From the NCBI GenBank assembly GCA_964609785.1, contig CAZSSN010000002.1:1-40510 (forward strand): DNA of 40,510 nucleotides. The letters run 5' to 3'. The notes below the pieces were generated by a model. It was not told the origin of the DNA and did no database searches. It worked only from the letters and a program-made list of their open reading frames with translations. This document shows, one piece after another, positions 2,857-37,337 of this stretch. The position numbers and the translations under genes are program-made. This DNA is from an uncultured Candidatus Saccharibacteria bacterium. GTDB lineage: Bacteria; Patescibacteriota; Doudnabacteria; UBA920. Within the stretch, counting starts at the first letter, position 1; each line of letters opens with the position of its first letter.

Positions 2857-3309
2857 ATGAAACACTGGTTATTTAAAACAGAACCTAATAGCTATAGCAT
2901 TGATGATCTTCAAAAAGAGAAGAAAACTCTTTGGACAGGAATACGCAACTATCAAGTTCGCAATATGCTGCGTGACGACATCGCCAAAGGTGATAAGGTC
3001 CTAATTTACCACAGTAGCTCAGGGGATATTGGTATAGTTGGTCTGGCTGAGGTAATTAAAACTTGCATCCCAGATCCAACTGCTTTTGATCAAAAGGATC
3101 ATCACTTCGACCCTAGAAGTAAGAAAGATAGTCCAACTTGGTATTGCTGCGAAATAAAGTTTGTTAAAAAGTTCAAAGAAATTTTGCCGCTTAAAGAAAT
3201 AAAGCAACACCCAGAACTTATGGAAATGAAGTTGTTGCAAAAAGGAAGCAGACTTTCTATCACGCCAGTGACTAAGCCTGAATTTGAATTAATAATACAG
3301 ATCTCATGA
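2857..3309 (+). CDS. EVE (PUA-like) domain protein
   Basis: MKHWLFKTEPNSYSIDDL... N-terminus and ~150-aa size are typical of stand-alone EVE domain proteins. Confidence 0.75.
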   Translation: MKHWLFKTEPNSYSIDDLQKEKKTLWTGIRNYQVRNMLRDDIAKGDKVLIYHSSSGDIGIVGLAEVIKTCIPDPTAFDQKDHHFDPRSKKDSPTWYCCEIKFVKKFKEILPLKEIKQHPELMEMKLLQKGSRLSITPVTKPEFELIIQIS

Positions 3310-4775: not shown

Positions 4776-5156
4776 TTGGTTAAAAAACGCATAGATATGA
4801 GCGCAATTGACAAAGAGAAAATTTTCGTAGAATTGCGAAAGTATCATACTGAAGAATTTCCAGAAAAGCTGGCGAATGAAGAAATGCAAGCACTTCGTGA
4901 AGAGTTTCAAATCATCGAAGATGATATTGTCACCATGCTATTAAGCTTAGTAAATGGCAAACTTGGGTTCGTTGATTTTAAAAAGGAATTAGCAGACTTC
5001 ACAGACAAAGTTAAAGTGTTAAAAACAGGGGATCGCTTGGAAGATGAAAATCGTAATTTCTTCCTTGCTAAGATAGCTCATTTGAAAGAACTATTAGAAA
5101 TAGCAGAGCACGCAATTTTCAAACTTAAAGTTCCCCGAGTGCCTAAAGCTGTATAA
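4776..5156 (+). CDS. Hypothetical protein (start uncertain: TTG at 4776 or ATG at 4797)
   Basis: Clean helical-looking ORF followed by a terminator. No family recognised. Confidence 0.5.
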   Translation: MVKKRIDMSAIDKEKIFVELRKYHTEEFPEKLANEEMQALREEFQIIEDDIVTMLLSLVNGKLGFVDFKKELADFTDKVKVLKTGDRLEDENRNFFLAKIAHLKELLEIAEHAIFKLKVPRVPKAV

Positions 5157-6073: not shown

Positions 6074-6853
6074 ATGAGCTCAAAATTATTTAAACAAATT
6101 GGCGCATCACTAACAACCCTTATAATTATGGGTGTTTTTGCTTTGCCATCATCAGTAAATGCTAGTTATTCTAGCTCTAGCGACCCTTTTTACGGTTGGA
6201 CTGGCGTAAATAATTTAAGTTCAACAAACTCCAGCAACCCATTCGAAGGTTGGACTGGAGTAAACAACTCTGCTAGTACTACAAATACTACAAACTCAAA
6301 TAATCCATTCAGCGGATGGACCGGCGTTAATAATCTAACTACTACAGGATCCACCACGACATCTAATCCATTTTCAGGATGGACTGGAGTTGATAACTCT
6401 AATCCAAGCAATTCTTCTAGTTCTGCAAACAGCACTTTTGGATCTTGGACAGGGGTAAATAATTCTAATGAGACTTCATCACAAAACAATCCTTTCGGTG
6501 ACTGGGCTGGTGTTAATAACTCAGACTACATAGGAACTCAATCTTCGAACTCTTCAGATATATTTGGCACATGGAGTGGCGTGAGTAATTCTGATCAGGC
6601 TAATAACTCTACAAGTTCGAACAGCTCGTTCGGGGATTGGTATGGAACATCATCTAGCAGTTCTAGTAATGTAGCTTTAGCTTCATCTTCATCAACCACA
6701 GATTCTGCGTCTAAACCTCAAATCTCTGATGGTACTGAAACTTACTATGTAGCTCCGACCACAGGTGTAGATAGAATGGCTCCGTATGGCTTTGCTGGAT
6801 TACTTACCGCTGGGTTTGTAATAATCAGGAAGCGAAAATTACTGTTTAACTAA
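6074..6853 (+). CDS. Secreted Asn/Ser/Thr-rich tandem-repeat protein with a sortase-type C-terminal anchor signal (putative cell-surface protein)
   Basis: Signal peptide ending VNA|S. Eight copies of an (N/D)PFxGWTGVNN-like unit separated by S/T/N linkers. C-terminus is APTTG, then the hydrophobic stretch YGFAGLLTAGFVII, then RKRK. Confidence 0.7.
   Translation: MSSKLFKQIGASLTTLIIMGVFALPSSVNASYSSSSDPFYGWTGVNNLSSTNSSNPFEGWTGVNNSASTTNTTNSNNPFSGWTGVNNLTTTGSTTTSNPFSGWTGVDNSNPSNSSSSANSTFGSWTGVNNSNETSSQNNPFGDWAGVNNSDYIGTQSSNSSDIFGTWSGVSNSDQANNSTSSNSSFGDWYGTSSSSSSNVALASSSSTTDSASKPQISDGTETYYVAPTTGVDRMAPYGFAGLLTAGFVIIRKRKLLFN
6182..6649 (+). repeat. In-frame imperfect tandem repeats (unit core PF-x-G-W-T-G-V-N-N, period roughly 55-75 nt)
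   Basis: DPFYGWTGVNN, NPFEGWTGVNN, NPFSGWTGVNN, NPFSGWTGVDN, TFGSWTGVNN, NPFGDWAGVNN, DIFGTWSGVSN, SFGDWYGT. Confidence 0.85.
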
Positions 6854-8430: not shown

Positions 8431-8431
8431 G

Positions 8432-8777
8432 TCCCAAGCAAACTCGTAAGCCGAATTCTGTTTCTAAATGATCATCTATCTGGGATCACTGTTGCCAGCG
8501 ACCTCGGTGCTGCCTACCTAATTTGGCATTGCACTCAAGTAAGAATTTAGCCGTTTCACCCGATATGTTTCCATATCGATTCACCCAACCAACTTAGTGG
8601 GGTGCGCAATCATTTCTGATTAACGCGTCTCTGTTCGCATCTCTGAGATTACTCTCGACGGGTGTTACCCGCTACTATTGTTAATAACTCTATAGAGGTT
8701 ATCAACTAAGTGTTCGGACTTTCCTCCCCAGCAGCAGCTTTCGCGCGCTTAGGGCGATCATTCGATTTGCTTGGAAC
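8432..8777 (-). ncRNA. rnpB: RNase P RNA, bacterial type A
   Basis: The minus-strand RNA contains GGGGAGGAAAGTCCGAACAC (CR-I), GGGTAACACCCG, ACAGAGA, GGGTGAAA, GCAATGCCAAATTAGG, and AGATAGATGA...ACAGAATTCGGCTTAC (CR-IV/V). The 5' TCCAAGCAAA pairs with the 3' TTTGCTTGGGA to form P1. Confidence 0.93.
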
Positions 8778-14860: not shown

Positions 14861-15992
14861 TATAAATAAAACAAAAAAAGTAATCTTTGTTGGCGGAGAA
14901 ACAGCTGGACCTGTTATGCCATTATTAGCTTTAGCAGATGCCTGGGTTAGTCAAGACTCAAAAATTGAGCCAGTCTTTTTAGATTTAAAGAAATCAGTTG
15001 CAGCCAGAATTGTTCCAGCCCGTGGCTACAAATTTAAAAAAATAACTTCAGGCAAACTCCGGCGCTATTGGTCTTTTAAAAATATTGTTTCACCTTTTTT
15101 AACTTTAATTGGGTTAATCCAGTCGCTTATTTTGCTGCTAACTCTAAAGCCGGAAGTAGTTGTTGGTGCTGGCGGTTATGTTCAAGTCCCAGTTATAGTC
15201 GCAGCGTGGCTTCTAAGAATCCCGAGAGTGATTCATCAGCAAGATATAGTCCCCACATTTTCAAATAGAATTTGTACCCCTTTTGCAAATAAAATAACTA
15301 CAACATTTGAAAAATCATTAAAGGATTTTCCTCAAGGTTCAGGTTTTGAAAAAAACTATTCACAATATACAAAAATTGAGTGGACCGGTAACCCAACAGA
15401 ACTAAATAACGTTTCCCCAACAGATGAAGAAAGAAACGTCGCTCGTAATTTATTTAAGCTCGATCACGATTGGCCGACAGTATTAGTAATTGGTGGTGGC
15501 AGCGGAGCCCGAGGATTAAATGCGGCATTGGAGCATAACTTGCCCGAACTATTGAAAGTTGCCCAGGTTATTCATAGTACTGGACCAGGGAAGTTGATTA
15601 ACCCAGCCATAGACATAGCGCATGGCCACGACAGGTATCATCAATACGAGTTCATTAATAAAGTTGATCAGGCATACATGGCAGCTGACATTGTAATCAG
15701 CCGGGCAGGTATAGGGGCTATTACGGCATTGTCTGCTTTGCGAAAACTTAGTATTATTGTGCCAATGCCAGAAACTCATCAAGAGTGGAACGCTCAGTAT
15801 TTATACGATAAAAACGCAGCTATTATTTTAGATGAAAAGGATATAACCCCAGATACTTTAGCAAAAGGTGTTCGTAAAATCCTCTTTGATAAAGAACTTC
15901 AGGAAGAAATGCAAAAGAATATCCATTCAATAATGCCGCCTAACGCAACAGAAAAAATGTTAACTGTAATAAAGAAAGTTATTCATGAATAG
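14841..15992 (+). CDS. murG: MurG-like GT28 glycosyltransferase (lipid I to lipid II GlcNAc transferase), divergent N-terminal G-loop
   Basis: GGGSGARGLN, ISRAGIGAITAL...IIVPMP and QEWNAQYL match MurG C-domain motifs. The N-terminus reads GGETAGPVMP instead of the canonical GGTGGH. An alternative start ATG at 14853 gives an 8-nt overlap with the upstream GT. Confidence 0.7.
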   Translation: MNQKMNSINKTKKVIFVGGETAGPVMPLLALADAWVSQDSKIEPVFLDLKKSVAARIVPARGYKFKKITSGKLRRYWSFKNIVSPFLTLIGLIQSLILLLTLKPEVVVGAGGYVQVPVIVAAWLLRIPRVIHQQDIVPTFSNRICTPFANKITTTFEKSLKDFPQGSGFEKNYSQYTKIEWTGNPTELNNVSPTDEERNVARNLFKLDHDWPTVLVIGGGSGARGLNAALEHNLPELLKVAQVIHSTGPGKLINPAIDIAHGHDRYHQYEFINKVDQAYMAADIVISRAGIGAITALSALRKLSIIVPMPETHQEWNAQYLYDKNAAIILDEKDITPDTLAKGVRKILFDKELQEEMQKNIHSIMPPNATEKMLTVIKKVIHE

Positions 15993-17061
15993 AAACAGTA
16001 TCCCACATTCAAAGAATAGACCAACGGTAGGATTTGCTTTCAGTGGTGCTTCATCACGAAGCGTATTTTACATTGGATTCCTAGAAGTTCTTGAAGAGAA
16101 TGGTTTTCCAATTGATTACATTTCAGCAATGTCTGGTGGCGCAGTAGTGGCTGCAAGTTTTGCTTGCGGTACCTTGCCTGCTCTTAAACAAATGGCTTTG
16201 GGAATGGATAAAGAGCTAATTTTCAATTTAATTGAAAGAAGCAAAGGCCGTGGAGGTCTGTATCATTTAGATAAAGTTGAAGCCTTGCTTCGAGTTTATA
16301 CAAAGAACAAAAAGTTTGAAGAAGTGAACCCAAGATTAAGTTTTGTTACAACTGATATCTCTGCTACAGACCCTAAAAACTCTGAGGTGACTTTACAAGT
16401 TGGTGATATAGCCAAAGCTGTTTGTGCATCTTGCACATTGCCGGGAGTTTTCCAGCCTTTTGAATGGGGGAATAAACAACTCCTTGATGGAGGTATAATT
16501 AACATAGTGCCAGGAAACGTAGCGCGTGAGGCGAACATGGATGTTGTAATTGGTGTAGATATGCGTGCAACTAGGCACATATTTAGCTCGTGGCAAATCA
16601 TGCTGAAAAAGAGTCTTGATTTAATTAAGCAGATATTGTGGCCTAGTCAGATTAATCAACTTTGGAGAAACTTTAAAGGCATTTTAGATTATGAAGATGC
16701 TCTAGGTGCTTATGAAAATGTAGACCGCTTACACGATAAGACTTTGTATCCTGGTATCTTTACAGTTTTAGATAAAGCCATTGGCCTGGCTATTAAAGCC
16801 CAGAAAGAGCAAGAAAAAGATGAAAATTATAATTGCGATATAATCCTTACTCCAGATGTTGCGCCACCTACTTTTTGGAAACGTTATCTATATTTGCATT
16901 TCACAGATTTCAGTAGCACTGAAGAATATTATAAAGCAGGTAGAAGAGTGGCGTTGCAGAATCTTCCACAGCTTTGGCAGCTACTGTCCGATAAAGAAAC
17001 AGAGATAAATAATCGCGAAGAGAAAGTGAAGAATTTACTAAAAACCACAATTAATAATTAA
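15985..17061 (+). CDS. Patatin-like phospholipase family protein
   Basis: Oxyanion region FSGASSRS, nucleophile elbow AMSGG (GxSxG variant), and catalytic Asp in LLDGGIINIVP. 8-nt overlap with murG and 3-nt gap to murC. Confidence 0.8.
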   Translation: MNRNSIPHSKNRPTVGFAFSGASSRSVFYIGFLEVLEENGFPIDYISAMSGGAVVAASFACGTLPALKQMALGMDKELIFNLIERSKGRGGLYHLDKVEALLRVYTKNKKFEEVNPRLSFVTTDISATDPKNSEVTLQVGDIAKAVCASCTLPGVFQPFEWGNKQLLDGGIINIVPGNVAREANMDVVIGVDMRATRHIFSSWQIMLKKSLDLIKQILWPSQINQLWRNFKGILDYEDALGAYENVDRLHDKTLYPGIFTVLDKAIGLAIKAQKEQEKDENYNCDIILTPDVAPPTFWKRYLYLHFTDFSSTEEYYKAGRRVALQNLPQLWQLLSDKETEINNREEKVKNLLKTTINN

Positions 17062-26549: not shown

Positions 26550-28070
26550 ATGAAATCAATACTAACAAAAATCTCGCTTTTGGCAGGAATTGTACTTATT
26601 GCATTAGCTGCTGCGTGGATTGTTTGGCCAAATGGAAGCCGAATCAACCTTTCTAAAATTGGAATTAACTTCCAAAAAAGCTTCACTACTCATTTAGGTT
26701 TGGATTTACAGGGTGGATCCCACTTAGTTTACCAAGCAGACTTTAAAGATGTAGAAAGTGCTGACCAAAAAGAAGCTCTAACTGCGGTTCGCGACACAAT
26801 TGAGCGAAGAGTTAATAGTTTCGGAGTATCTGAACCTCTTGTTCAAGTTCAAGGAAGAGATCAAATTGTAGTTGAACTTCCAGGTATTGATGATGTAAAT
26901 AAAGCTATCGAACAAATCGGGCAAACCCCATTAATGGAATTCCGCACCGAAGGCGAACCAGTTCCAACCCTGGCTGGTGTAGGTGCTGATGGGCAGGTAG
27001 ACCTTGGGTCTATTGATCCAATAGCAGCTGCTGGATGGCAAACAACTGGTCTTTCAGGAAAGCAATTAAAGAGAGCGACTGCTGACATACAGACTGCGGG
27101 AGCAGGAAGCGTAAGCAACGAAGTTGTTGTTCGTTTGCAATTTGATGAAGAAGGAACCAAGTTGTTTAGCGATCTAACTCAAGCAAACATTGGTAAGCAA
27201 ATCGCTATTTTCTTGGACGGAGAAGTACTAAGTGCCCCAACCGTACAAAGCGCAATTACTAACGGAGAAGCAGTAATCACTGGTAGCTTTACTGCAGATG
27301 AGGCAAAGCAATTAGCTACTCGCCTTAATTCTGGAGCTTTGCCAGTACCTATTAAACTTATTTCTCAGCAAAATGTAGGCGCTACACTAGGACAAGAATC
27401 AATCGATAAATCCATAATTGCTGGACTAATTGGAATGCTTTTGATTGTGATCTTCATGGTAGCTAACTACCGCTTCCCGGGGGTTTTGGCAGTACTTGCA
27501 TTGCTAGTATATGTATTGCTTTCTATAGCAGTATTTAAAATAGGGATCTCAATAACCGCTGTAATCTTAGTCGGGGTATTTTTCTTGCTCGGACTCACAG
27601 TTAGCAGATGGTTTGGATTCTTAGCTTTAATTAGCTACGTGGCCTTAATCTTCTTAAATGGTGTTTCTCCTGTAACTCTAACTTTAGCTGGTATTGCAGG
27701 GTTCATCCTTTCTATTGGAATGGCCGTAGATGCTAACATCCTAATCTTTGAACGTCTTAAAGAAGAAATCCGTGCAGGTAAAGACATTAATAAGGCAATT
27801 GATGATGGATTTGCTAGAGCTTGGCTTTCTATTCGTGATTCAAACGTCTCTAGTCTTATCACAACCTTGATTCTTTACATGTTTGGAACACCTTCAATCA
27901 GAGGGTTCGCTGTAACTTTGGCTATTGGTATTCTGATTTCCATGTTCACAGCTATCACTATTACTCGAACATTCTTAAAATTGTTTGTAACCGGGAAAGT
28001 AATGTCGCACCCATGGCTATTCGGAGTCAGTATGCGTAGAAAAGATCAAATTAATACATCAGCAAACTAA
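26550..28070 (+). CDS. secD: Protein translocase subunit SecD
   Basis: N-terminal TM, large periplasmic domain (LGLDLQGG, GVSEP), and a six-TM C-terminal domain with DANILIFERLKEE. Confidence 0.92.
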   Translation: MKSILTKISLLAGIVLIALAAAWIVWPNGSRINLSKIGINFQKSFTTHLGLDLQGGSHLVYQADFKDVESADQKEALTAVRDTIERRVNSFGVSEPLVQVQGRDQIVVELPGIDDVNKAIEQIGQTPLMEFRTEGEPVPTLAGVGADGQVDLGSIDPIAAAGWQTTGLSGKQLKRATADIQTAGAGSVSNEVVVRLQFDEEGTKLFSDLTQANIGKQIAIFLDGEVLSAPTVQSAITNGEAVITGSFTADEAKQLATRLNSGALPVPIKLISQQNVGATLGQESIDKSIIAGLIGMLLIVIFMVANYRFPGVLAVLALLVYVLLSIAVFKIGISITAVILVGVFFLLGLTVSRWFGFLALISYVALIFLNGVSPVTLTLAGIAGFILSIGMAVDANILIFERLKEEIRAGKDINKAIDDGFARAWLSIRDSNVSSLITTLILYMFGTPSIRGFAVTLAIGILISMFTAITITRTFLKLFVTGKVMSHPWLFGVSMRRKDQINTSAN

Positions 28071-28071
28071 T

Positions 28072-28962
28072 ATGAGACTACTTAACTACTACAAATACTT
28101 ATTCGCTATCTCTGGAATCATTTTAATTTTGGGCATAGCTTCACTAGCAGTTTTTGGTCTAAGACTTGGCATCGACTTTAAGGGCGGTACCGTTAGTGAA
28201 ATAGAATTCCAACAAACAATTGATCAAGGTAAACTTCGCAGTGTTCTTGAAGCTGGAGGTGTCCAAAACTACCAATTACAACAAACTGGTGAAAAAGGTG
28301 TAATTATCCGTACTGAAAGCTTAGAAAAAGAGCAGCACGATAAAATGAATGCTGACATTCGTTCTCAAGTAGGGGAATTTACAGAGAAACGTTTTGATTC
28401 ATTCGGTCCGGTTGTAGGCGAAGAGCTAAAGAAAAAGGCTATTTACCAGTTACTATTAGTTTCTCTCGGTATCGTATTGTATATCGCTTATGCATTCCGT
28501 AAGGTAGCTAGACCAATCACTCCATGGCAATTCGGATTAGCTGCTATCATTGCTCTTGTTCATGACTTGTTAATTGTCCTAGGAATCTTCTCACTACTTG
28601 GACACTTCTACAATGTTGAAGTAGACAGTTTATTCGTTACGGCGATTCTTACTGTTCTAGGATTCTCTGTTCACGACACGATCATTGTATTTGACCGTAT
28701 CCGCGAAAACCTAAAAGTTTATGCTGGTCAATCAGTAGAGTTCATTGTTAATCACAGTATCTCTCAAACCCTAGTTCGCTCACTAAATACTAGCTTAACT
28801 GTTCTATTCGTTTTACTTGCTATGCTTCTATTCGGCGGGGAAACAATTCGATACTTTGTACTAGCTCTATTCATTGGTATTGCTGCAGGAACATATTCCT
28901 CAATTTTCGTAGCTGCACCAATTCTAGTACTATTCCAGAACTGGAAGAACCGAAAGCGCTAA
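28072..28962 (+). CDS. secF: Protein translocase subunit SecF
   Basis: GIDFKGGT, HDTIIVFDRIREN. Immediately follows secD. Confidence 0.92.
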   Translation: MRLLNYYKYLFAISGIILILGIASLAVFGLRLGIDFKGGTVSEIEFQQTIDQGKLRSVLEAGGVQNYQLQQTGEKGVIIRTESLEKEQHDKMNADIRSQVGEFTEKRFDSFGPVVGEELKKKAIYQLLLVSLGIVLYIAYAFRKVARPITPWQFGLAAIIALVHDLLIVLGIFSLLGHFYNVEVDSLFVTAILTVLGFSVHDTIIVFDRIRENLKVYAGQSVEFIVNHSISQTLVRSLNTSLTVLFVLLAMLLFGGETIRYFVLALFIGIAAGTYSSIFVAAPILVLFQNWKNRKR

Positions 28963-28978
28963 ATATGTTAAACAAAAG

Positions 28979-29001
28979 ACACTGCCTGAGCAGTGTTTTT
29001 T
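28979..29001 (+). terminator. Intrinsic terminator after secF
   Basis: ACACTGC-ctga-GCAGTGT followed by TTTTTT. Confidence 0.8.
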
Positions 29002-29016
29002 ATTATCCCACATTGT

Positions 29017-29045
29017 TTGACACGTTATGAAATATATGTTATAAT
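29017..29045 (+). promoter_or_regulatory. Perfect consensus sigma70 promoter
   Basis: TTGACA (29017-29022), exactly 17 nt, TATAAT (29040-29045). The leader contains the hairpin TTGGCTA-tt-TAGCCAA and the SD AAGGAA. Confidence 0.75.
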
Positions 29046-29094
29046 CGGTTTATCGTTATAAATTGGCTATTTTAGCCAAGAAATTCTTAAGGAA

Positions 29095-30180
29095 ATGGGT
29101 ATTTTAGATACAATAATTGATTCTCATCAAAAAGAGTCACTACAACAATTTGAATTAAATCTAATCATTACTAAAATTTTAGATCCATTACGTGAACGCG
29201 AAAAGTCTATACTTTCTAAGCGTTACGGTCTTGGTGGTGAAGAAATGCAAACCCTTAAAACAGTAGGGGAAGAGCAAGGATTAACACGTGAGCGTGTTCG
29301 CCAAATTGAAAAAGATTTATTAAAGAACCTAAAGAATGGCGTTCAGCAATTGGACTCCTTTTTAGCTGCGCGTGATCTTCTTTTAACTACAATTACTGAA
29401 CATGGCGGCATTATGTCTGAAAAGACATTAATGGGTCATTTAGGTGCAGAAACTGATGAAGAAGCGAACGCTTTGAAGTTCTTACTAAACTTAATGGCTG
29501 AACTTGAAGAACATTCCGAAGATAAGCACATTAAGCAATCTTGGTCTCGCATTGGTTTTGATAAAGAATTTATTAAAGAGTTTGTAAACACAACTCGTGG
29601 CATTTTGGATAATCATGGAAAACCATTACAACCTGAAGAATTTATTGAAAAGTTTGCTGAATCTGATTTCTTCAAAAAGTATGAACCACAACTTTCACCA
29701 CGCGTTATCATAAACTATTTGCAAGCAACCTCAGGAATTCACAAGAACCCATTTGGTGAATTTGGCATGCATCACTGGAATGAAATCCGTCCCAAAGATG
29801 TTGGTGATAAAGCCTATTTGGTGATGAAACACCACAACAAACCTGAGCACTATTCAGTAATTACTGATTTGATTAACAAACATGGCTTAGACAAGCGCAC
29901 TGCTTACAAAGAAACAGTGCACAATAAACTTATTAAGGATAAACGCTTTGTACTTGTAGGCCGTGGCATGTATGCTTTAGCTGAATGGGGATATAAACCA
30001 GGTGTAGTATCAGATATCATCGTTAATGTTCTAAAAGATGCTGGTAAACCAATGTCACGAGAAGAAATTATCGAAGAAGTTTTGAAACGTCGCATGGTTA
30101 AGAACAACACTATTTTAGTTGGACTTTCGAATAAGAAACTAGTTAAGAAAGTTGGAAAAAATCTTTACGACTTAGCTTAA
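29095..30180 (+). CDS. Sigma-70 region-4-only protein fused to HARE-HTH/winged-helix-like domains (not a canonical sigma factor)
   Basis: LREREKSILSKRYGLGGEEMQTLKTVGEEQGLTRERVRQIEKDLLKNLK is a textbook region 4.1-4.2; no region 2 or 3 is present. C-terminal segments KAYLVMKHHNKPEHYSVITDLI...DKRFVLVGRGMYALAEWGY and DIIVNVLKDAGKPMSREEIIEEVL...VKKVGKNLYDL look like HARE-HTH units. Confidence 0.65.
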   Translation: MGILDTIIDSHQKESLQQFELNLIITKILDPLREREKSILSKRYGLGGEEMQTLKTVGEEQGLTRERVRQIEKDLLKNLKNGVQQLDSFLAARDLLLTTITEHGGIMSEKTLMGHLGAETDEEANALKFLLNLMAELEEHSEDKHIKQSWSRIGFDKEFIKEFVNTTRGILDNHGKPLQPEEFIEKFAESDFFKKYEPQLSPRVIINYLQATSGIHKNPFGEFGMHHWNEIRPKDVGDKAYLVMKHHNKPEHYSVITDLINKHGLDKRTAYKETVHNKLIKDKRFVLVGRGMYALAEWGYKPGVVSDIIVNVLKDAGKPMSREEIIEEVLKRRMVKNNTILVGLSNKKLVKKVGKNLYDLA

Positions 30181-30253
30181 ACTGTTACTCTTTAGTTGGC
30201 GAAAGCTAATTAGCGAAACCCTGGAACTCTAGATACAAAAATTAAAACAAATC

Positions 30254-31417
30254 ATGACTGATAGCTCAATTCTAAGTATAGTATGGTATTTATTTTCCCA
30301 CGGTGGTTGGGTGGTTTTTGCCATTCTTTTTGTTTACATACTTTTCCAAATTTACTTAAACGAAATCCAAGATAACTATAAAAATAGTTTGGAATGGGTT
30401 TATTACGAAATAAAACCTCCGAAAGAAAACATCTCTAGTTTTTACAATGCTGAGCAAATTTTTATACAGCTTCATCAATTATTCGATAACTGGACCTTTC
30501 AAGAAAAATACATTGAAGGGAAGTTAGTGTTTTGGCTTTCTTTAGAAATCGTTAGCCTGGGTGGTAAAATCTCATACGTCATTCGGATACCAAAGAAGCA
30601 AAAAGAGCTTGTTGAAGCCTCTTTTTACGCTAACTACCCTCATATAGAGATGAACGAGATAGAAGATTATCTTTCTCATTTTGAATATGACCCCGATAAT
30701 GAAAAATATGAATTGTTTGGCGGTGAAATGGTATTAACCCAGCCAGAAGTTGTCCCTATCCGTACTTACAGAGAATTCATAAGTTTGAAGGGACCAGATG
30801 CTAGTGAGAAAGTAGTAGATCCTCTTAGCCCTCTTTTGGAAGTGTTTACGCGTTTAAGTTCAAAAGAATTTTATGCTATGCAAATAATTATCAAACCAGT
30901 AGGTGATGACTCGTGGAGAAAAGAAGCTGAAGCAGCTGTAGAAAAGTTGCAAGGGGAAAAAGATTTCCAGCAGATTGATGATGTAACGAAATTACGCATT
31001 GCATCAATTAAATCTAAATTAGGTAAGCCTGGTTTTAGTACAAAAATTCGCGTATTGCACATGGGTGTTAAGGAAAGTTTCAACAAAGATGCAAAGAAAT
31101 TACTGCTTAGTCCTTTTAAAGTCTTTAACTCTGCCAACTCCAACAGTTTTAAGTTAGCTTTTGGTCCAAAAAAAGACTATCGCATTTCACCGACTCTGGA
31201 AGCTCCTTTCATTAATTATTGGGTTCGTCAAAAGAAGATTGATATTTTCAAGGCGTTTAAGGGACGTAGTACTTGGATTGGCTATCCTATGTACATCCTC
31301 AACGCAGAGGAGTTAGCTACTCTTTTTCACTTCCCGATTACAGCTGATCAAGTAAATGCTTCAGTTGAAACTGTAACTACCAAAAAGATTCAACCACCTG
31401 CAGATCTTCCTATCTAG
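30254..31417 (+). CDS. N-terminally membrane-anchored protein of unknown function (partner of the downstream ATPase)
   Basis: One hydrophobic segment (ILSIVWYLFSHGGWVVFAILFVYILFQIYL), then a ~340-aa soluble domain ending ...NAEELATLFHFPI. No catalytic motif recognised. Confidence 0.6.
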   Translation: MTDSSILSIVWYLFSHGGWVVFAILFVYILFQIYLNEIQDNYKNSLEWVYYEIKPPKENISSFYNAEQIFIQLHQLFDNWTFQEKYIEGKLVFWLSLEIVSLGGKISYVIRIPKKQKELVEASFYANYPHIEMNEIEDYLSHFEYDPDNEKYELFGGEMVLTQPEVVPIRTYREFISLKGPDASEKVVDPLSPLLEVFTRLSSKEFYAMQIIIKPVGDDSWRKEAEAAVEKLQGEKDFQQIDDVTKLRIASIKSKLGKPGFSTKIRVLHMGVKESFNKDAKKLLLSPFKVFNSANSNSFKLAFGPKKDYRISPTLEAPFINYWVRQKKIDIFKAFKGRSTWIGYPMYILNAEELATLFHFPITADQVNASVETVTTKKIQPPADLPI

Positions 31418-31454
31418 TTATCGTATATAATATAAACAGAACAGATATAACAAT

Positions 31455-33233
31455 ATGGCTGAAAAAGAAGTAATCAATTTTTTTGGGAAAACCAACTTCC
31501 GTAACAGGCAAGTGCCGTTTGGTATTAAAACCGATGACCGTCGCCGTCATATGTATATGATCGGTAAAACTGGTATGGGCAAAACAACCATGATGGAAAA
31601 CATGGTTATTCAAGATATCCGCAATGGTAATGGTGTTTGTTTCATTGATCCTCACGGAGACTCGCTTAAGAAAATTTTAGACTATATTCCAAATGATCGA
31701 ATTAACGATGTGGTCTATTTTAACCCTGCAGACTTAGACCACCCTATTGCATTTAACATTCTTGAAGCAGTAGATAGCAAGTACAAACATTTAGTAGCCT
31801 CAGGTTTAATGGGTGTGTTCACAAAAATTTGGGCAAGTATGTGGTCGGCTCGTATGGAATACATTCTAAACAATACAATTTTGGCTTTGCTTGATAGTCC
31901 CGGTAATACCATGATGGGTATTGTTCGTATGTATGTAGATAAAAAATACCGTAAAAAGATTGTCGATGGGATTAAAGACCCAATGGTTAGGGCTTTCTGG
32001 CTTGAGGAATTTGCAAACTACGCAGAAAAATATAGAACAGAAGCTGTAGCACCGATCCAAAACAAAGTTGGACAGTTTTTATCTAGCTCTGTAATTCGTA
32101 ATATTGTAGGGCAACCTAAGTCTACAATCGATTTACGCGAGATCATGGATAATCAAAAAATTCTTTTGCTCGATCTTTCTAAGGGTAAAGTAGGGGAAGA
32201 TAACTCAGCTTTGCTTGGTGCCATGATTATTACTAAATTACAGTTAGCAGCGCTTTCTCGTGTTGATATTCCAGAACATGAACGTAAAGACTTCTATCTA
32301 TACGTAGATGAGTTCCAGAACTTCGTGACAGACTCTTTTGCTACCATTTTGAGCGAAGCTCGTAAGTATCGCTTAAATTTGACTATGGGCCATCAGTACA
32401 TTGGGCAGTTAGTCCCTGAAGGCAACACAAAAATGCGTGATGCGGTTTTTGGTAACGTTGGTACTATGGTAGTATTCCGTGTTGGAGCAGCTGATGCTGA
32501 GTTTTTGGAAACTGAGTTCGAACCATCATTTACCCCAGTGGATATTGTAAACATTCCAAAGTACAATGTTATTTTGAAATTAATGATTAATGGCGTAGCT
32601 AGCGATCCATTCACAGCGACCTCTTTGCAGGTAGATGAAAGTTGGTATACTGGAAATTCAGAGAAAGTCATCAAAGTTTCTAGAGAAAGATATGCAAACC
32701 CAAGTGCTGAAGTAGAAGATAAAATTAACAGATGGATGGGTGCTGAGTTCCATGAAGCCAGCGCGGACTCTGCTAGTGGTGGAGAAAAAGCAAAGTCCAG
32801 AGAAAGCGATATCCCAGACGTTGCGCCAAAGGCGGCTACATTTACACCTACAAATTCTCCTACGAATGCTCCGGCTCAAAGCAAACCTACTCCTCCTCCT
32901 ATTAAAATATCATCAGCATTCAAAGATCGAATGCAACAAATGAGACAACCAGCAAAACCTGTAGCTAAGCCAGAAGCTAAACCTATGGCAACAGCATCTA
33001 AGAATCAGCCTAAGAAACCAAATAAATCTGCTGCAATTTGGGACACAGCAGCAGCGATACAATCAAGCAAACAAGATGAGATTGCAGAGAATGTAGCTAA
33101 AGCCATTCAAAATGCTCATTCTGCTCCAAAGCCCAACACTCCAAAAGAAGACGTGCTAAAGGAAGAAGCTCCTAAACAAGTACCAGCGCAACCGAATGCA
33201 GGAATTCAACCTGGTGAAACTTATAAGTTATAA
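31455..33233 (+). CDS. VirD4/TraG/TraD-like (FtsK-HerA superfamily) P-loop ATPase lacking TM helices, with a long Pro/Ala/Lys-rich C-terminal tail
   Basis: Walker A IGKTGMGKTT, Walker B FYLYVDEFQNF, RKYRLNLTMGHQYIGQL and VFGNVGTMVVFRVG as in type IV coupling protein / TraG-D_C-type domains. The last ~165 aa are low-complexity. A possible internal TATAAT lies at 31426-31431. Confidence 0.65.
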   Translation: MAEKEVINFFGKTNFRNRQVPFGIKTDDRRRHMYMIGKTGMGKTTMMENMVIQDIRNGNGVCFIDPHGDSLKKILDYIPNDRINDVVYFNPADLDHPIAFNILEAVDSKYKHLVASGLMGVFTKIWASMWSARMEYILNNTILALLDSPGNTMMGIVRMYVDKKYRKKIVDGIKDPMVRAFWLEEFANYAEKYRTEAVAPIQNKVGQFLSSSVIRNIVGQPKSTIDLREIMDNQKILLLDLSKGKVGEDNSALLGAMIITKLQLAALSRVDIPEHERKDFYLYVDEFQNFVTDSFATILSEARKYRLNLTMGHQYIGQLVPEGNTKMRDAVFGNVGTMVVFRVGAADAEFLETEFEPSFTPVDIVNIPKYNVILKLMINGVASDPFTATSLQVDESWYTGNSEKVIKVSRERYANPSAEVEDKINRWMGAEFHEASADSASGGEKAKSRESDIPDVAPKAATFTPTNSPTNAPAQSKPTPPPIKISSAFKDRMQQMRQPAKPVAKPEAKPMATASKNQPKKPNKSAAIWDTAAAIQSSKQDEIAENVAKAIQNAHSAPKPNTPKEDVLKEEAPKQVPAQPNAGIQPGETYKL

Positions 33234-33244
33234 CTATGTAAATT

Positions 33245-33271
33245 AAAAAAACTCCCAAATGGGAGTTTTTT
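33245..33271. terminator. Bidirectional intrinsic terminator between the ATPase gene and trxA
   Basis: AAAAAA-ACTCCC-aaat-GGGAGT-TTTTT. Confidence 0.85.
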
Positions 33272-35774: not shown

Positions 35775-37337
35775 ATGTATTCATTGCTAATTAAAAAAGC
35801 TACTGTTATTGATGGAACAGGGTCAGCACCAATTACAGCTGATGTTGCTATTAATGGCGATAGAATTGTTAATATATCTCAAGATATAACTTCCCAAGCT
35901 CAGGAAGTTATTCATGCTGAAGGAAAAGTTTTAGCTCCAGGGTTCATCGATATTCAAAACCATAGCGACAGTCATTGGCGTTTGTTCGATGGCCCAAATT
36001 TAGAAAGCATGATTACGCAAGGCTACACAACAATCATGGTAGGAAATTCAGGAGCAAGTTTGGCTCCATTAATTTCTGAACAATCACTACTTTCTTTGCA
36101 AAAGTGGCACACCATGGAAGGTGTAAATATTAACTGGCGAAGTTTCCAAGAGTTTGCCGAATCTATGAGTGCTCAAAGGTTTGGTGCAAATGTAGCCAGT
36201 TTAGTTGGATATTCTACTTTGCGTAGAGGGCTTATTGGCGATAAGCAAACTCCTGTTTCTGTTGATGAATTACAAACTTTGAAGAGAATGGCAGACGACG
36301 CAATTAACGAAGGAGCATTTGGGGTTTCAACCGGATTCGCATATGCGCATGAAGCAAATATCTCTGATGTTGAGCTTTACGAGATTGCTCAGATTGTTGC
36401 TAACCACGACGCTTACATTTCTGTTCATTTGCGAGATGAGTCAGGGAGTGTTATTGAAAGTGTTCGCGAAGTTATAGCAGCAGCTGAACAAGCGAAAGCC
36501 AATGTTAAGATTTCTCACTTGAAAATACGACACCCCGAAAATTGGCCACTAGTTACAGATGTATTAGCAGAGCTAGAAGCAGCTTGGCATAGAGGCGTAA
36601 ATGTTCATTTCGATGTATACCCATACACTTCAACATGGCAACCAATATACACATATCTTCCTTCATGGGCAACAATGGGTGGGCGGTTAGAATTATTAGC
36701 GCTCTTAAAAAATCCAACTCAAAGAGCCAAGATATTAAGCGCGTTAAATACTTCTGAAACAGATATTCCTCAATTAATGATTGCCTCAACTTCAGCGAAG
36801 CTTATGGTTACTGGAAAGACCATCTCAACAATAGCTGCGGGATTTGGCACAACCAGCGAAGAGGCATTGCTCCATTTAATTGAAAACGGTGGAAGTGAAA
36901 TCCTTGTTTTTGATACTAGCTTGGACGAAAAAATTGTTGATGATTTTTGCAATCACTCACTTTCGTTCATTGCGACTAATGGTAGCGGATACTCATCAGA
37001 AGATACAAATACACTTGTTCATCCGAGATGTTTTGGTACAGCTGCAAAATTCTTACAGAATGTTAATACTTCCAAAGAAATTTCTTTGACTGAAGCTATT
37101 AGAAAACTAACATCTGGCCCAGCAAAGAAGATTGGCTTAAAAGATCGCGGGGTTATTGCCGTAGATGCTAAAGCCGATCTAGTATTGTTTGATCCACAGA
37201 AGATTGGATCTAGAGCATCAGTTGAAAACCCATACCAATACGCAGATGGGATAGAACAAGTTTGGGTAAACGGAGAGAAAGCCGTTACTGCAGGCTCTGT
37301 TACAGGAAACAAGTCAGGAATATTCTTAAAAAAATAA
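35775..37337 (+). CDS. D-aminoacylase (N-acyl-D-amino-acid deacylase) family amidohydrolase, with substitutions at expected metal-ligand positions
   Basis: ATVIDGTGSAPITADVAINGDRI...VLAPGFIDIQNHSD N-terminus and DRGVIAVDAKADLVLFDP...VWVNG C-terminus are typical of the family. HxH reads QNH and GNCG reads GNSG in my by-eye alignment. Confidence 0.7.
   Translation: MYSLLIKKATVIDGTGSAPITADVAINGDRIVNISQDITSQAQEVIHAEGKVLAPGFIDIQNHSDSHWRLFDGPNLESMITQGYTTIMVGNSGASLAPLISEQSLLSLQKWHTMEGVNINWRSFQEFAESMSAQRFGANVASLVGYSTLRRGLIGDKQTPVSVDELQTLKRMADDAINEGAFGVSTGFAYAHEANISDVELYEIAQIVANHDAYISVHLRDESGSVIESVREVIAAAEQAKANVKISHLKIRHPENWPLVTDVLAELEAAWHRGVNVHFDVYPYTSTWQPIYTYLPSWATMGGRLELLALLKNPTQRAKILSALNTSETDIPQLMIASTSAKLMVTGKTISTIAAGFGTTSEEALLHLIENGGSEILVFDTSLDEKIVDDFCNHSLSFIATNGSGYSSEDTNTLVHPRCFGTAAKFLQNVNTSKEISLTEAIRKLTSGPAKKIGLKDRGVIAVDAKADLVLFDPQKIGSRASVENPYQYADGIEQVWVNGEKAVTAGSVTGNKSGIFLKK

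Follow-up and report, generated by a model that had tools for sequence, protein, structure and literature searches.

Coupling-protein ATPases of type IV secretion systems (T4SS), such as VirD4, TrwB and TraD, usually contain a built-in transmembrane domain. TraJ of plasmid pIP501 is a Gram-positive coupling protein without a transmembrane domain of its own and is reported to be recruited to the membrane by the small membrane protein TraI; both are plasmid-borne and lie within a complete conjugation operon that includes a relaxase. Here we analyze a chromosomal block of three genes on contig CAZSSN010000002.1 of a Patescibacteria metagenome-assembled genome; the whole contig, 40,510 bp in length, is referred to as the window. 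The genes encode, in this order, a protein with a sigma region 4 and HARE-HTH domains (named SIG here, as are its orthologues), a membrane protein with the Pfam domain DUF8128, and an ATPase of the VirD4/TrwB type. Our comparisons make us confident of the anatomy of this locus, namely a coupling-protein motor split over two genes, with its anchor provided in trans, within a core operon that is inherited vertically.

Much of the diversity of uncultured bacteria belongs to Patescibacteria, which live attached to host cells. The exchange of DNA and protein between them and their hosts is the question that this locus touches. In a survey of 3,035 Patescibacteria genomes, 2,417 contain VirB4 and 2,918 contain VirD4-type homologues (PMC12102498). 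The VirD4-type homologues number 5,713, around two per genome, and usually lie far from virB4; other uses have been suggested for them, without further description (PMC12102498).

The window ATPase has the same kind of nucleotide-binding domain as TrwB and DotL, its best solved relatives. It differs from VirD4, TrwB and TraD in lacking a transmembrane domain in its own polypeptide, the anchor coming from the upstream gene, and in being paired or fused with a DUF8128 domain of ~ 350 residues that is absent from canonical coupling proteins. Moreover, its gene is chromosomal and passed on vertically, its conservation is unusually high, and no relaxase or mating-pair genes are co-encoded on the 40.5-kb contig. 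We know of no DUF8128-type domain in the pIP501 system. VirB4 proteins such as TrwK resemble the pair in having a membrane-associated N-terminal domain followed by an ATPase of the FtsK-HerA type, and the DUF8128 model matches TrwK chains. In contrast to VirB4, the sequence of the window ATPase is not VirB4-like, and the anchor helix sits inside DUF8128 rather than in a separate VirB3. TrsD of pGO1/pSK41 already provides an example of a VirB4-N-domain-like protein that stands free next to its ATPase (PMC12102498). FtsK and SpoIIIE, membrane-anchored ring-shaped DNA pumps of the same superfamily, share with the module a winged-helix element, in their case for DNA recognition, and a long low-complexity linker or tail; the window protein matches none of the FtsK families PF01580, PF17854, PF09397 and PF13491 in Pfam.

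Two further groups of relatives stand closer in architecture. Phage G gp156 and SPO1 gp27.4 are among phage fusions of 825-913 aa whose N-terminal half is DUF8128-like and whose other half is a homologous ATPase; they differ in being phage-encoded, only 23-28% identical and without an annotated SIG-like neighbour. SEML1_0294 and SEML1_0293 of the cultured S. epibionticum ML1 show the same gene order and domains, except that anchor-scaffold and ATPase apparently form one protein of 921 aa.

Results

The 592-aa protein scores above the cut-off of three Pfam families: TrwB_AAD_bind (PF10412, 47.3 bits vs 20.5), T4SS-DNA_transf (PF02534, 22.7 vs 20.1) and TraG-D_C (PF12696, 25.4 vs 22). A transmembrane segment is not found, every 19-residue Kyte-Doolittle window staying below 1.6, and Walker A already begins at residue 37. 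An earlier note on this DNA, made from the sequence, had called the protein a VirD4/TraG-like ATPase without transmembrane helices, and correctly so. When aligned by hhalign, the ATPase pairs with TrwB at 93.7% over 269 columns (residues 27-323 vs 118-393), starting just past the TrwB transmembrane domain, whereas the alignment with TrwK/VirB4 reaches 1.8% and covers Walker A alone. A profile of 29 diverse homologues run against PDB sequences finds TrwB (1.8e-6) and DotL (1.2e-5) as its best matches, with TrwK absent at E <= 1. Similarly, phmmer searches with TrwB match 80 module ATPases, and those with TrwK/VirB4 match none. Judged by sequence, the ATPase belongs with the VirD4/TrwB coupling proteins of the FtsK-HerA superfamily and not with VirB4, and we rejected its assignment as a VirB4-type C-terminal ATPase on the grounds of the hhalign, phmmer and PDB-profile results.

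The ATPase core is more strongly conserved than SecD and SecF, with a median identity across classes of 62-65% vs 44-49% in the same genome pairs. Residues ~ 108-217 are predicted to be helical, and the hhalign alignment runs through the all-alpha region of TrwB; the AlphaFold2 (AF2) model of the ATPase core is weak, with a predicted local distance difference test score (pLDDT) of 41. The C-terminal tail is free of cysteine and carries the conserved short motifs AIWDTA and, near the C-terminus, PGE. About half of the distant homologues have a zf_Tbcl_2 zinc finger in place of this tail. It is a C4 treble-clef finger, CxxC-x17-CxxC (typically CxxCG...F.PD..RP.YC..C), located directly C-terminal to the ATPase core at about residues 440-500 in homologues from eleven related loci and matching PF23477 at up to 5.8e-14. 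In the alternation of tail and zinc finger, one partner- or nucleic-acid-binding module seems to have been exchanged for another.

The 387-aa protein has no match in NCBIfam or in the local Pfam, which is without the PF26449 model; its identification as DUF8128 (PF26449.1) comes from the precomputed annotation of a 100%-identical cluster representative and of most listed homologues. What had earlier been described as a soluble domain without a recognizable motif is thus a catalogued family. The single N-terminal anchor that had also been proposed is indeed present: the sole hydrophobic segment spans residues ~ 6-39 (about nt 30269-30370), and no further one follows. Counts of lysine plus arginine are 0.2 before the helix and 1.2 after it. 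These positive-inside counts, along with the natural fusions in which the domain lies upstream of a cytoplasmic ATPase, point at an N-out/C-in topology, which would place the large domain in the cytoplasm.

Predicted structure offers a further level of detail on this domain. The AF2 model of the DUF8128 protein has a pLDDT of 79.7 and a predicted template modelling score of 0.77. In Foldseek comparisons with the PDB, the twelve best matches are all TrwK/VirB4 of R388 (E 1e-5 to 2e-4, probability 1.0, TM-scores 0.36-0.42). Among viral models, the matches are phage G gp156 (2.9e-17), the VirB4-like gp155 of the same phage (8.7e-8) and two further Bacillus-phage proteins. As the P-loop domain of gp155 spans ~ 330-547, the match to this protein must fall on its N-domain. 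In its predicted fold, the cytoplasmic part of DUF8128 resembles the N-terminal domain of VirB4. A search of PDB sequences with the DUF8128 profile, which is shallow (effective sequence number, Neff, 2.7), gave no match.

To place the block in its genomic context we compared 84 related loci, 80 of them from GTDB species representatives and 4 from around close DUF8128 homologues. The 80 GTDB loci had the highest scores among more than 571, and the sample is biased to closer relatives. The order SIG-DUF8128-ATPase on one strand is kept down to 27-30% DUF8128 identity and occurs in Doudna-, Yanofsky-, Komeili-, Uhr-, Magasanik-, Buchanan-, Sung-, Terry- and Moraniibacteria and in Paceibacterota; by gene order and domain layout it extends to S. 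epibionticum. The check on conserved synteny that the earlier note had proposed thus came out in favour of the module. The ATPase gene follows DUF8128 directly in 60 of the 73 loci with room for it, at a median gap of 22.5 nt and with several overlaps of 1-4 nt.

In addition, DUF8128 and ATPase occur as single proteins of 860-960 aa in at least three metagenomic lineages. One fusion of 956 aa (P0368), in which DUF8128 spans 4-420 and the TrwB domain 447-759, was recovered from three independent datasets (ENA, JGI and Logan). Three metagenome loci (L086, L087 and L098) carry fused forms, and sister lineages at 60-63% identity carry split ones. Repeated fusion and splitting is standard evidence that two proteins act together, and in the fusions DUF8128 precedes the ATPase, the same order of domains as in VirB4. 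DUF8128 is the anchor or scaffold half of the motor. The idea that the anchor is supplied in trans by the upstream gene, already put forward in the earlier note, finds support in the conserved adjacency, the short or overlapping gaps and these fusions.

Several loci depart from the simple split pair. L046 contains the pair plus a fused paralogue of 852 aa (L046:9-2567) 6 kb upstream of it, and L068:8259-9704 is a tandem second ATPase. Extra paralogues of this kind, including SEML1_0142 of S. epibionticum, fit the figure of about two VirD4-type homologues per genome (PMC12102498). The fused protein at L098:7965-10556 (863 aa) starts 61 nt past SIG, at the conserved motif EVPR.N, and has no N-terminal membrane helix; it may be a soluble variant.

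Of 76 related loci, 69 have SIG directly before DUF8128 on the same strand, the median distance being 43 nt. No other neighbour of DUF8128 is as tight, and SIG is retained where YceG/MltG takes the place of the ATPase and where the wider neighbourhood differs. In the window protein, Pfam detects Sigma70_r4 at residues 29-80 (nt 29179-29334, 4.7e-12) and HARE-HTH in two stretches (1.2e-12), the better one at residues 238-298 (nt 29809-29988), and no sigma region 2. The earlier description of SIG as a protein with region 4 only plus HARE-HTH units was accurate on the Pfam and NCBIfam results. A role as sigma factor was rejected: all NCBIfam sigma models align to residues ~ 3-90 of SIG by their C-terminal ~ 70 residues only and, at 27-61 bits vs cut-offs of 43-800, score far too low. 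The delta subunit of RNA polymerase (RpoE) was also rejected, as TIGR04567 reaches 30.9 bits against a cut-off of 42. RpoE has ~ 170 aa, with an N-terminal HARE-HTH and an acidic C-terminal tail; SIG has no acidic tail, and its best HARE-HTH lies late in a protein of 361 aa.

S. epibionticum ML1 links the module to a cultured organism with transposon-sequencing (Tn-seq) data. SEML1_0294 has 349 aa, with Sigma70_r4 at 27-72 and HARE-HTH at 225-283, and is composed of one tri-helical and three winged domains (PMC10633639). It lies immediately 5' of SEML1_0293, whose 921 aa include TrwB_AAD_bind at 402-719 as well as TraG-D_C and DUF87, with the first ~ 360 residues free of domains (PMC10633639). 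Both belong to "core", "Patescibacteria-enriched" families (PMC10633639, Tables S1-S2); the main text of that paper (Cell 2023) does not mention them. From its domain layout, SEML1_0293 is probably a fused DUF8128-ATPase. The genes next to the pair, CRISPR-Cas and topA, are unlike those in the window.

SEML1_0294 is essential at all time points (PMC10633639). Since the SIG orthologue is essential and the ATPase dispensable in this organism, SIG needs a function wider than that of a motor part, and the view that it is merely a component of the motor does not hold. SIG probably binds RNA polymerase or DNA in some broader essential function, and it may additionally regulate the motor or pass DNA to it. 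The same genome encodes a canonical essential FtsK, SEML1_0096 (PMC10633639), and we rejected replacement of FtsK by the module on this ground and on the missing FtsK matches in Pfam. It also contains an essential T4SS cluster, SEML1_0006-0019, noted to be without a recognizable coupling protein, and a second coupling-protein-like paralogue, SEML1_0142, which is essential and has 1019 aa with a P-loop region at 381-800 (PMC10633639).

Relatives of the fused form are also encoded by phages, so the DUF8128-ATPase architecture is not confined to Patescibacteria. Searches by tblastn with the ATPase return 37 phage records, mostly of large Bacillus phages; the relatives include phage G gp156 (825 aa, 3e-40), SPO1 gp27.4 (906 aa) and proteins of CP-51 and CampHawk. 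In phrog_5156, a family profile of 824 positions, the N-terminal region matches the DUF8128 protein (8.7e-10) and the C-terminal region the ATPase (1.8e-63). By hhalign, the DUF8128 profile aligns at 95.5% to residues 31-243 of gp156 and weakly, at 6%, to SPO1 gp27.4. In phage G, gp156 lies beside gp155 (P-loop_TraG, AAA_10 and DUF87, i.e. VirB4-like) and gp153 (TrbL_4). In SPO1, gp27.4 adjoins the Replic_Relax protein gp27.3, with the actin-like ALP segregation protein gp27.9 nearby (FJ230960.1 91819-97329). Outside Patescibacteria, the architecture thus accompanies secretion or DNA-relaxation genes.

The gp153/gp155/gp156 group of phage G (JN638751.1 87772-93336) forms a small T4SS-like cluster in its own right, all three genes being without annotated function. 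In IMG/VR, eight contigs classed as viral (L103-L110) carry stand-alone ATPase homologues, 39-57% identical to the window protein, and have neither DUF8128 nor SIG. The genes around these homologues vary (an M23 peptidase, a PLD nuclease, a ParB_N protein) and give no coherent signal; some of the contigs may be cellular DNA, among them L105, with a tRNA synthetase and a Na/Pi transporter.

Discussion

Taken together, we favour, with some reserve, the reading that the DUF8128 protein and the ATPase form a split coupling-protein motor that likely docks on a separate conduit. DUF8128 replaces the transmembrane domain usually built into a coupling-protein ATPase. In this model, it would tether a TrwB-like ATPase ring beneath the membrane and serve for docking, as the N-domain does in VirB4. 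The analogy with TrwB would make the motor a pump for a polymer, with DNA or a DNA-protein complex as the likeliest substrate. The best candidate for the conduit is the chromosomal VirB4 secretion system of Gram-positive type that the majority of Patescibacteria encode elsewhere in the genome; docking on a T4SS and DNA as the substrate are the parts of this model that we hold only tentatively. The trio itself is not a self-sufficient translocon: with one single-pass helix in each subunit plus a cytoplasmic scaffold it has no channel, and it must therefore either dock on a different conduit or handle DNA at the membrane. On this point we depart from the earlier note, which had seen a candidate minimal translocation system: the single N-out/C-in helix and the lack of a channel component do not bear this out. 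Its description of a chromosomal stand-alone motor survives in its first half, as uniform GC content, collinearity and conservation all indicate a chromosomal, non-mobile locus, and is not supported in the second for want of a channel in the trio.

Several observations weigh against docking on a T4SS and against parts of the proposed anatomy. Among Patescibacteria, only 148 of the 5,713 coupling-protein homologues lie near virB4, and such homologues occur in more genomes than VirB4 does, 2,918 vs 2,417 (PMC12102498). Single-sequence searches, which are insensitive, detected no relaxase or VirB gene at a distance of up to 10 kb in ~ 100 related loci. In S. epibionticum, the T4SS genes are essential, in contrast to SEML1_0293, which is called non-essential, with normalized reads going from 5817 to 2940 and 1372, a drop of just ~ 4-fold (PMC10633639). 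The essential paralogue SEML1_0142 could be the real partner of the T4SS. Non-essentiality of SEML1_0293 also weakens the earlier suggestion of an import/export lifeline for a reduced, host-dependent cell. The call of SEML1_0293 as a probable fusion comes from its domain layout. In ~ 13 Paceibacterota loci, SIG-DUF8128 is followed by YceG/MltG instead of the ATPase, with MnmA and AlaRS next in some. The likeness of DUF8128 to the VirB4 N-domain is one of predicted structure only, at TM-scores of 0.36-0.56, and hhalign finds no signal between DUF8128 and R388 TrwK or pSK41 TrsD, with single-sequence targets and a profile of Neff 2.7. Finally, the AF2 model of the ATPase core has a pLDDT of 41, and the alignment used for it contains sequences that are 80-96% identical.

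The place of SIG and the choice of conduit are where other explanations enter. DUF8128 and ATPase might be one unit and SIG an unrelated essential transcription factor, which, like secDF, adjoins them only through ancestral gene order or a shared promoter; we regard this as a rather unlikely, if reasonable, account. It agrees with the essentiality of SEML1_0294 and not of SEML1_0293, with the retention of SIG-DUF8128 where the ATPase is not adjacent, with the frequent stem-loops in the SIG-DUF8128 gap and with the phage homologues of the fused ATPase, beside which no SIG-like gene is annotated. Moreover, secA, secDF, trxA and genes of the dcw cluster are collinear in relatives as well, which makes synteny alone weak evidence. 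Mere inheritance of gene order is harder to reconcile with an adjacency that persists in scrambled neighbourhoods, namely in S. epibionticum, with CRISPR-Cas and topA around it, and in L027, L031, L045 and L098, and with the short median gap on one strand. Another view assigns SIG, DUF8128 and ATPase to a self-contained DNA machine, specific to Patescibacteria, that works at the membrane independently of any T4SS, for example in loading or pulling DNA during uptake, in chromosome or nucleoid management during budding, or in DNA export via another conduit. The winged-helix SIG would then serve as DNA adaptor, much like the gamma domain of FtsK. Such a machine would account for the almost invariable position of SIG 5' of the pair across classes, also beside fused forms, and for an ATPase core conserved like that of a housekeeping protein. 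None of the examined loci has T4SS genes close to the module, the two counts from PMC12102498 given above point the same way, and the treble-clef zinc finger of many homologues is a possible nucleic-acid- or partner-binding module. Nevertheless, we consider this view unlikely. It leaves the trio without a channel component, the essentiality of SIG and not of the ATPase means that the two are no obligate pair, and the module cannot stand in for FtsK where S. epibionticum has an essential FtsK of its own. ComEC-dependent transformation already accounts for DNA uptake in this organism (PMC10633639), and the phage relatives are linked to VirB4- and TrbL-like genes.

The ATPase and SIG each match a component of known defence systems, and we therefore also weighed an anti-phage or anti-plasmid function with a HerA/VirD4-like ATPase, similar to mad8 of MADS or to MZA. 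PADLOC aligns mad8 to residues 19-352 of the ATPase (2.5e-13), and the region-4 portion of SIG is matched by MzaA in both PADLOC (1.1e-9) and NCBIfam (1e-14). These values are no stronger than those of generic P-loop and region-4 matches, the 387-aa protein is unmatched in PADLOC, and no other MADS or MZA component was seen. Defence systems are patchy and fast-evolving, whereas the module is a near-universal, vertically inherited core family whose ATPase is more conserved than SecDF, in a setting of uniform GC and housekeeping flanks. With partial-domain matches and incomplete sets of MADS mad1-8 and MzaA-E components, we rejected this assignment, and a defence role appears highly improbable. 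A bolder proposal takes DUF8128 plus ATPase as a third, unnamed lineage of secretion ATPases that joins a VirB4-type N-domain to a VirD4-type motor and possibly lies near the ancestor of both families; as a core chromosomal gene fixed across the radiation, it would form with the essential SIG a T4SS-independent machine for DNA handling or exchange in epibiotic cells. We think this improbable as a whole.

Returning to the split motor, it is not a new class of machine. Its parts are already catalogued, DUF8128 in Pfam, the VirD4-type homologues as counts (PMC12102498) and the S. epibionticum genes in Tn-seq tables (PMC10633639). A literature search found no paper on DUF8128 and none joining PF10412 with bacteria of the Candidate Phyla Radiation, and a PNAS 2024 perspective does not mention these genes. 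The split or fused DUF8128-motor unit, its VirB4-like N-domain, the fixed SIG partner and the phage relatives seem undescribed in the searchable literature. With them, the orphan VirD4-type homologues of Patescibacteria gain an anatomy: a unit of DUF8128 and motor with a predicted VirB4-like N-domain and a fixed sigma-like neighbour. The family is further tied to large Bacillus phages and, via SEML1_0293/0294, to a genetically tractable organism with essentiality data, so that the role of a very conserved motor becomes directly testable. The arrangement also bears on how the VirB4 and VirD4 ATPases diverged.

Layout of the locus and flanking genes

The features of the block are collected in Table 1. 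The three open reading frames (ORFs), the perfect promoter and both terminators, as described in the earlier note, are confirmed by the ORF list, the motif scan and RNA folding. The candidate promoter matches the consensus at 12 of 12 positions and is the sole perfect match across the 40.5 kb, where a scan allowing up to one mismatch gives 4 matches vs 0.57 expected. The upstream hairpin folds at -14.4 kcal/mol (z -6.2), a stability reached in 0 of 200 shuffles, and may act bidirectionally because an A-run lies on its 5' side. The downstream hairpin (~ 33246-33271) folds at -14.2 kcal/mol on the + strand and -13.7 kcal/mol on the - strand (z about -5), in agreement with the bidirectional terminator proposed earlier. 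To call the upstream terminator strong was generous, as the G+C-rich terminator stems measure just 6-7 bp; the hairpin itself is well supported. A simple terminator scan reported the upstream hairpin for the - strand and missed the + strand hairpins because the A/T flanks lengthen the stem.

Table 1. Coordinates of the three-gene block and its putative control elements in the window
Feature	Position (nt)	Strand	Description
Putative terminator at the end of the secD-secF unit	28979..29001	both	Hairpin 28979-28996 + T-run
Candidate sigma-70-type promoter	29017..29045	+	TTGACA-17-TATAAT, extended -10 TG (sequence motif)
SIG gene	29095..30180	+	Sigma70_r4 + HARE-HTH, 361 aa
Stem-loop in the SIG-DUF8128 gap	30189..30216	+	No U-run 3' of the stem
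DUF8128 (PF26449) gene	30254..31417	+	N-terminal membrane helix + cytoplasmic alpha/beta domain (predicted), 387 aa
ATPase gene	31455..33233	+	592 aa
ATPase core, residues 1-430	31455..32744	+	VirD4/TrwB-type nucleotide-binding domain
Walker A, G37-T45	31563-31589	+	Sequence motif
Walker B, L282-F290	32298-32324	+	Sequence motif
ATPase C-terminal tail + stop	32745..33233	+	162 residues, Ala/Pro/Lys-rich
Putative hairpin terminator common to the block and convergent trxA	33245..33271	both	A-run and T-run flanks

The whole SIG-DUF8128 gap of 73 nt folds at -12.5 kcal/mol (z -2.3). A conserved RNA element in this gap was rejected, as z falls below -2 in just 15 of 38 related gaps, and an Rfam scan of the three-gene block gave no match. 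The stem-loop might give the essential SIG and the dispensable motor differing levels of expression.

GC content is flat along the window, at 0.34-0.42, and gives no sign of an island. In line with the earlier statement on the flanks, conserved synteny with relatives identifies the flanking genes as housekeeping ones: secA, M1 peptidase, UDG, secDF, trxA, S11 peptidase, mraY, murD and ftsW. The window further contains tRNAs, RNase P RNA, glycosyltransferases, MurG and MurC. The uniform GC, these flanks and the collinearity across genomes led us to reject a mobile island and support a chromosomal locus that is inherited vertically across Patescibacteria. A Pfam scan of 23 window ORFs finds no relaxase, VirB4, VirB6, pilin or integrase family. 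The earlier statement that the 40 kb are free of T4SS and mobile-element genes is correct for these ORFs and carries little weight as evidence, because virB4 and VirD4-type genes of Patescibacteria usually lie far apart (PMC12102498).

Most loci, 48 in number and from different classes, have secD-secF (window 26550-28962) directly 5' of SIG, at a median gap of 117 nt. This exceeds the general collinearity and could be due to chance or reflect a connection with membrane biogenesis. The typical order secD-secF-SIG-DUF8128-ATPase also occurs in four loci (L031, L057, L064 and L066) titled "uncultured Gammaproteobacteria" or "Candidatus Saccharibacteria", and such titles look unreliable.

A gene for an amidohydrolase-family protein of ~ 520 aa (window 35775-37337) lies between mraY and murD in the division and cell-wall cluster. 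Its position is kept in relatives (L001:13992-15515 and L002:13465-15027), and it is an unusual member for such a cluster. RNase P RNA of the bacterial class A (113 bits) is located at window 8431-8773 on the - strand, in a region without a listed ORF of at least 100 aa. The ORFs at 762-1415 (217 aa), 4776-5156 (126 aa) and 6074-6853 (259 aa) are unmatched in Pfam at E <= 1e-4. Among the housekeeping genes, the window also encodes an EVE-domain protein (2857-3309) and a patatin-like phospholipase (15985-17061).

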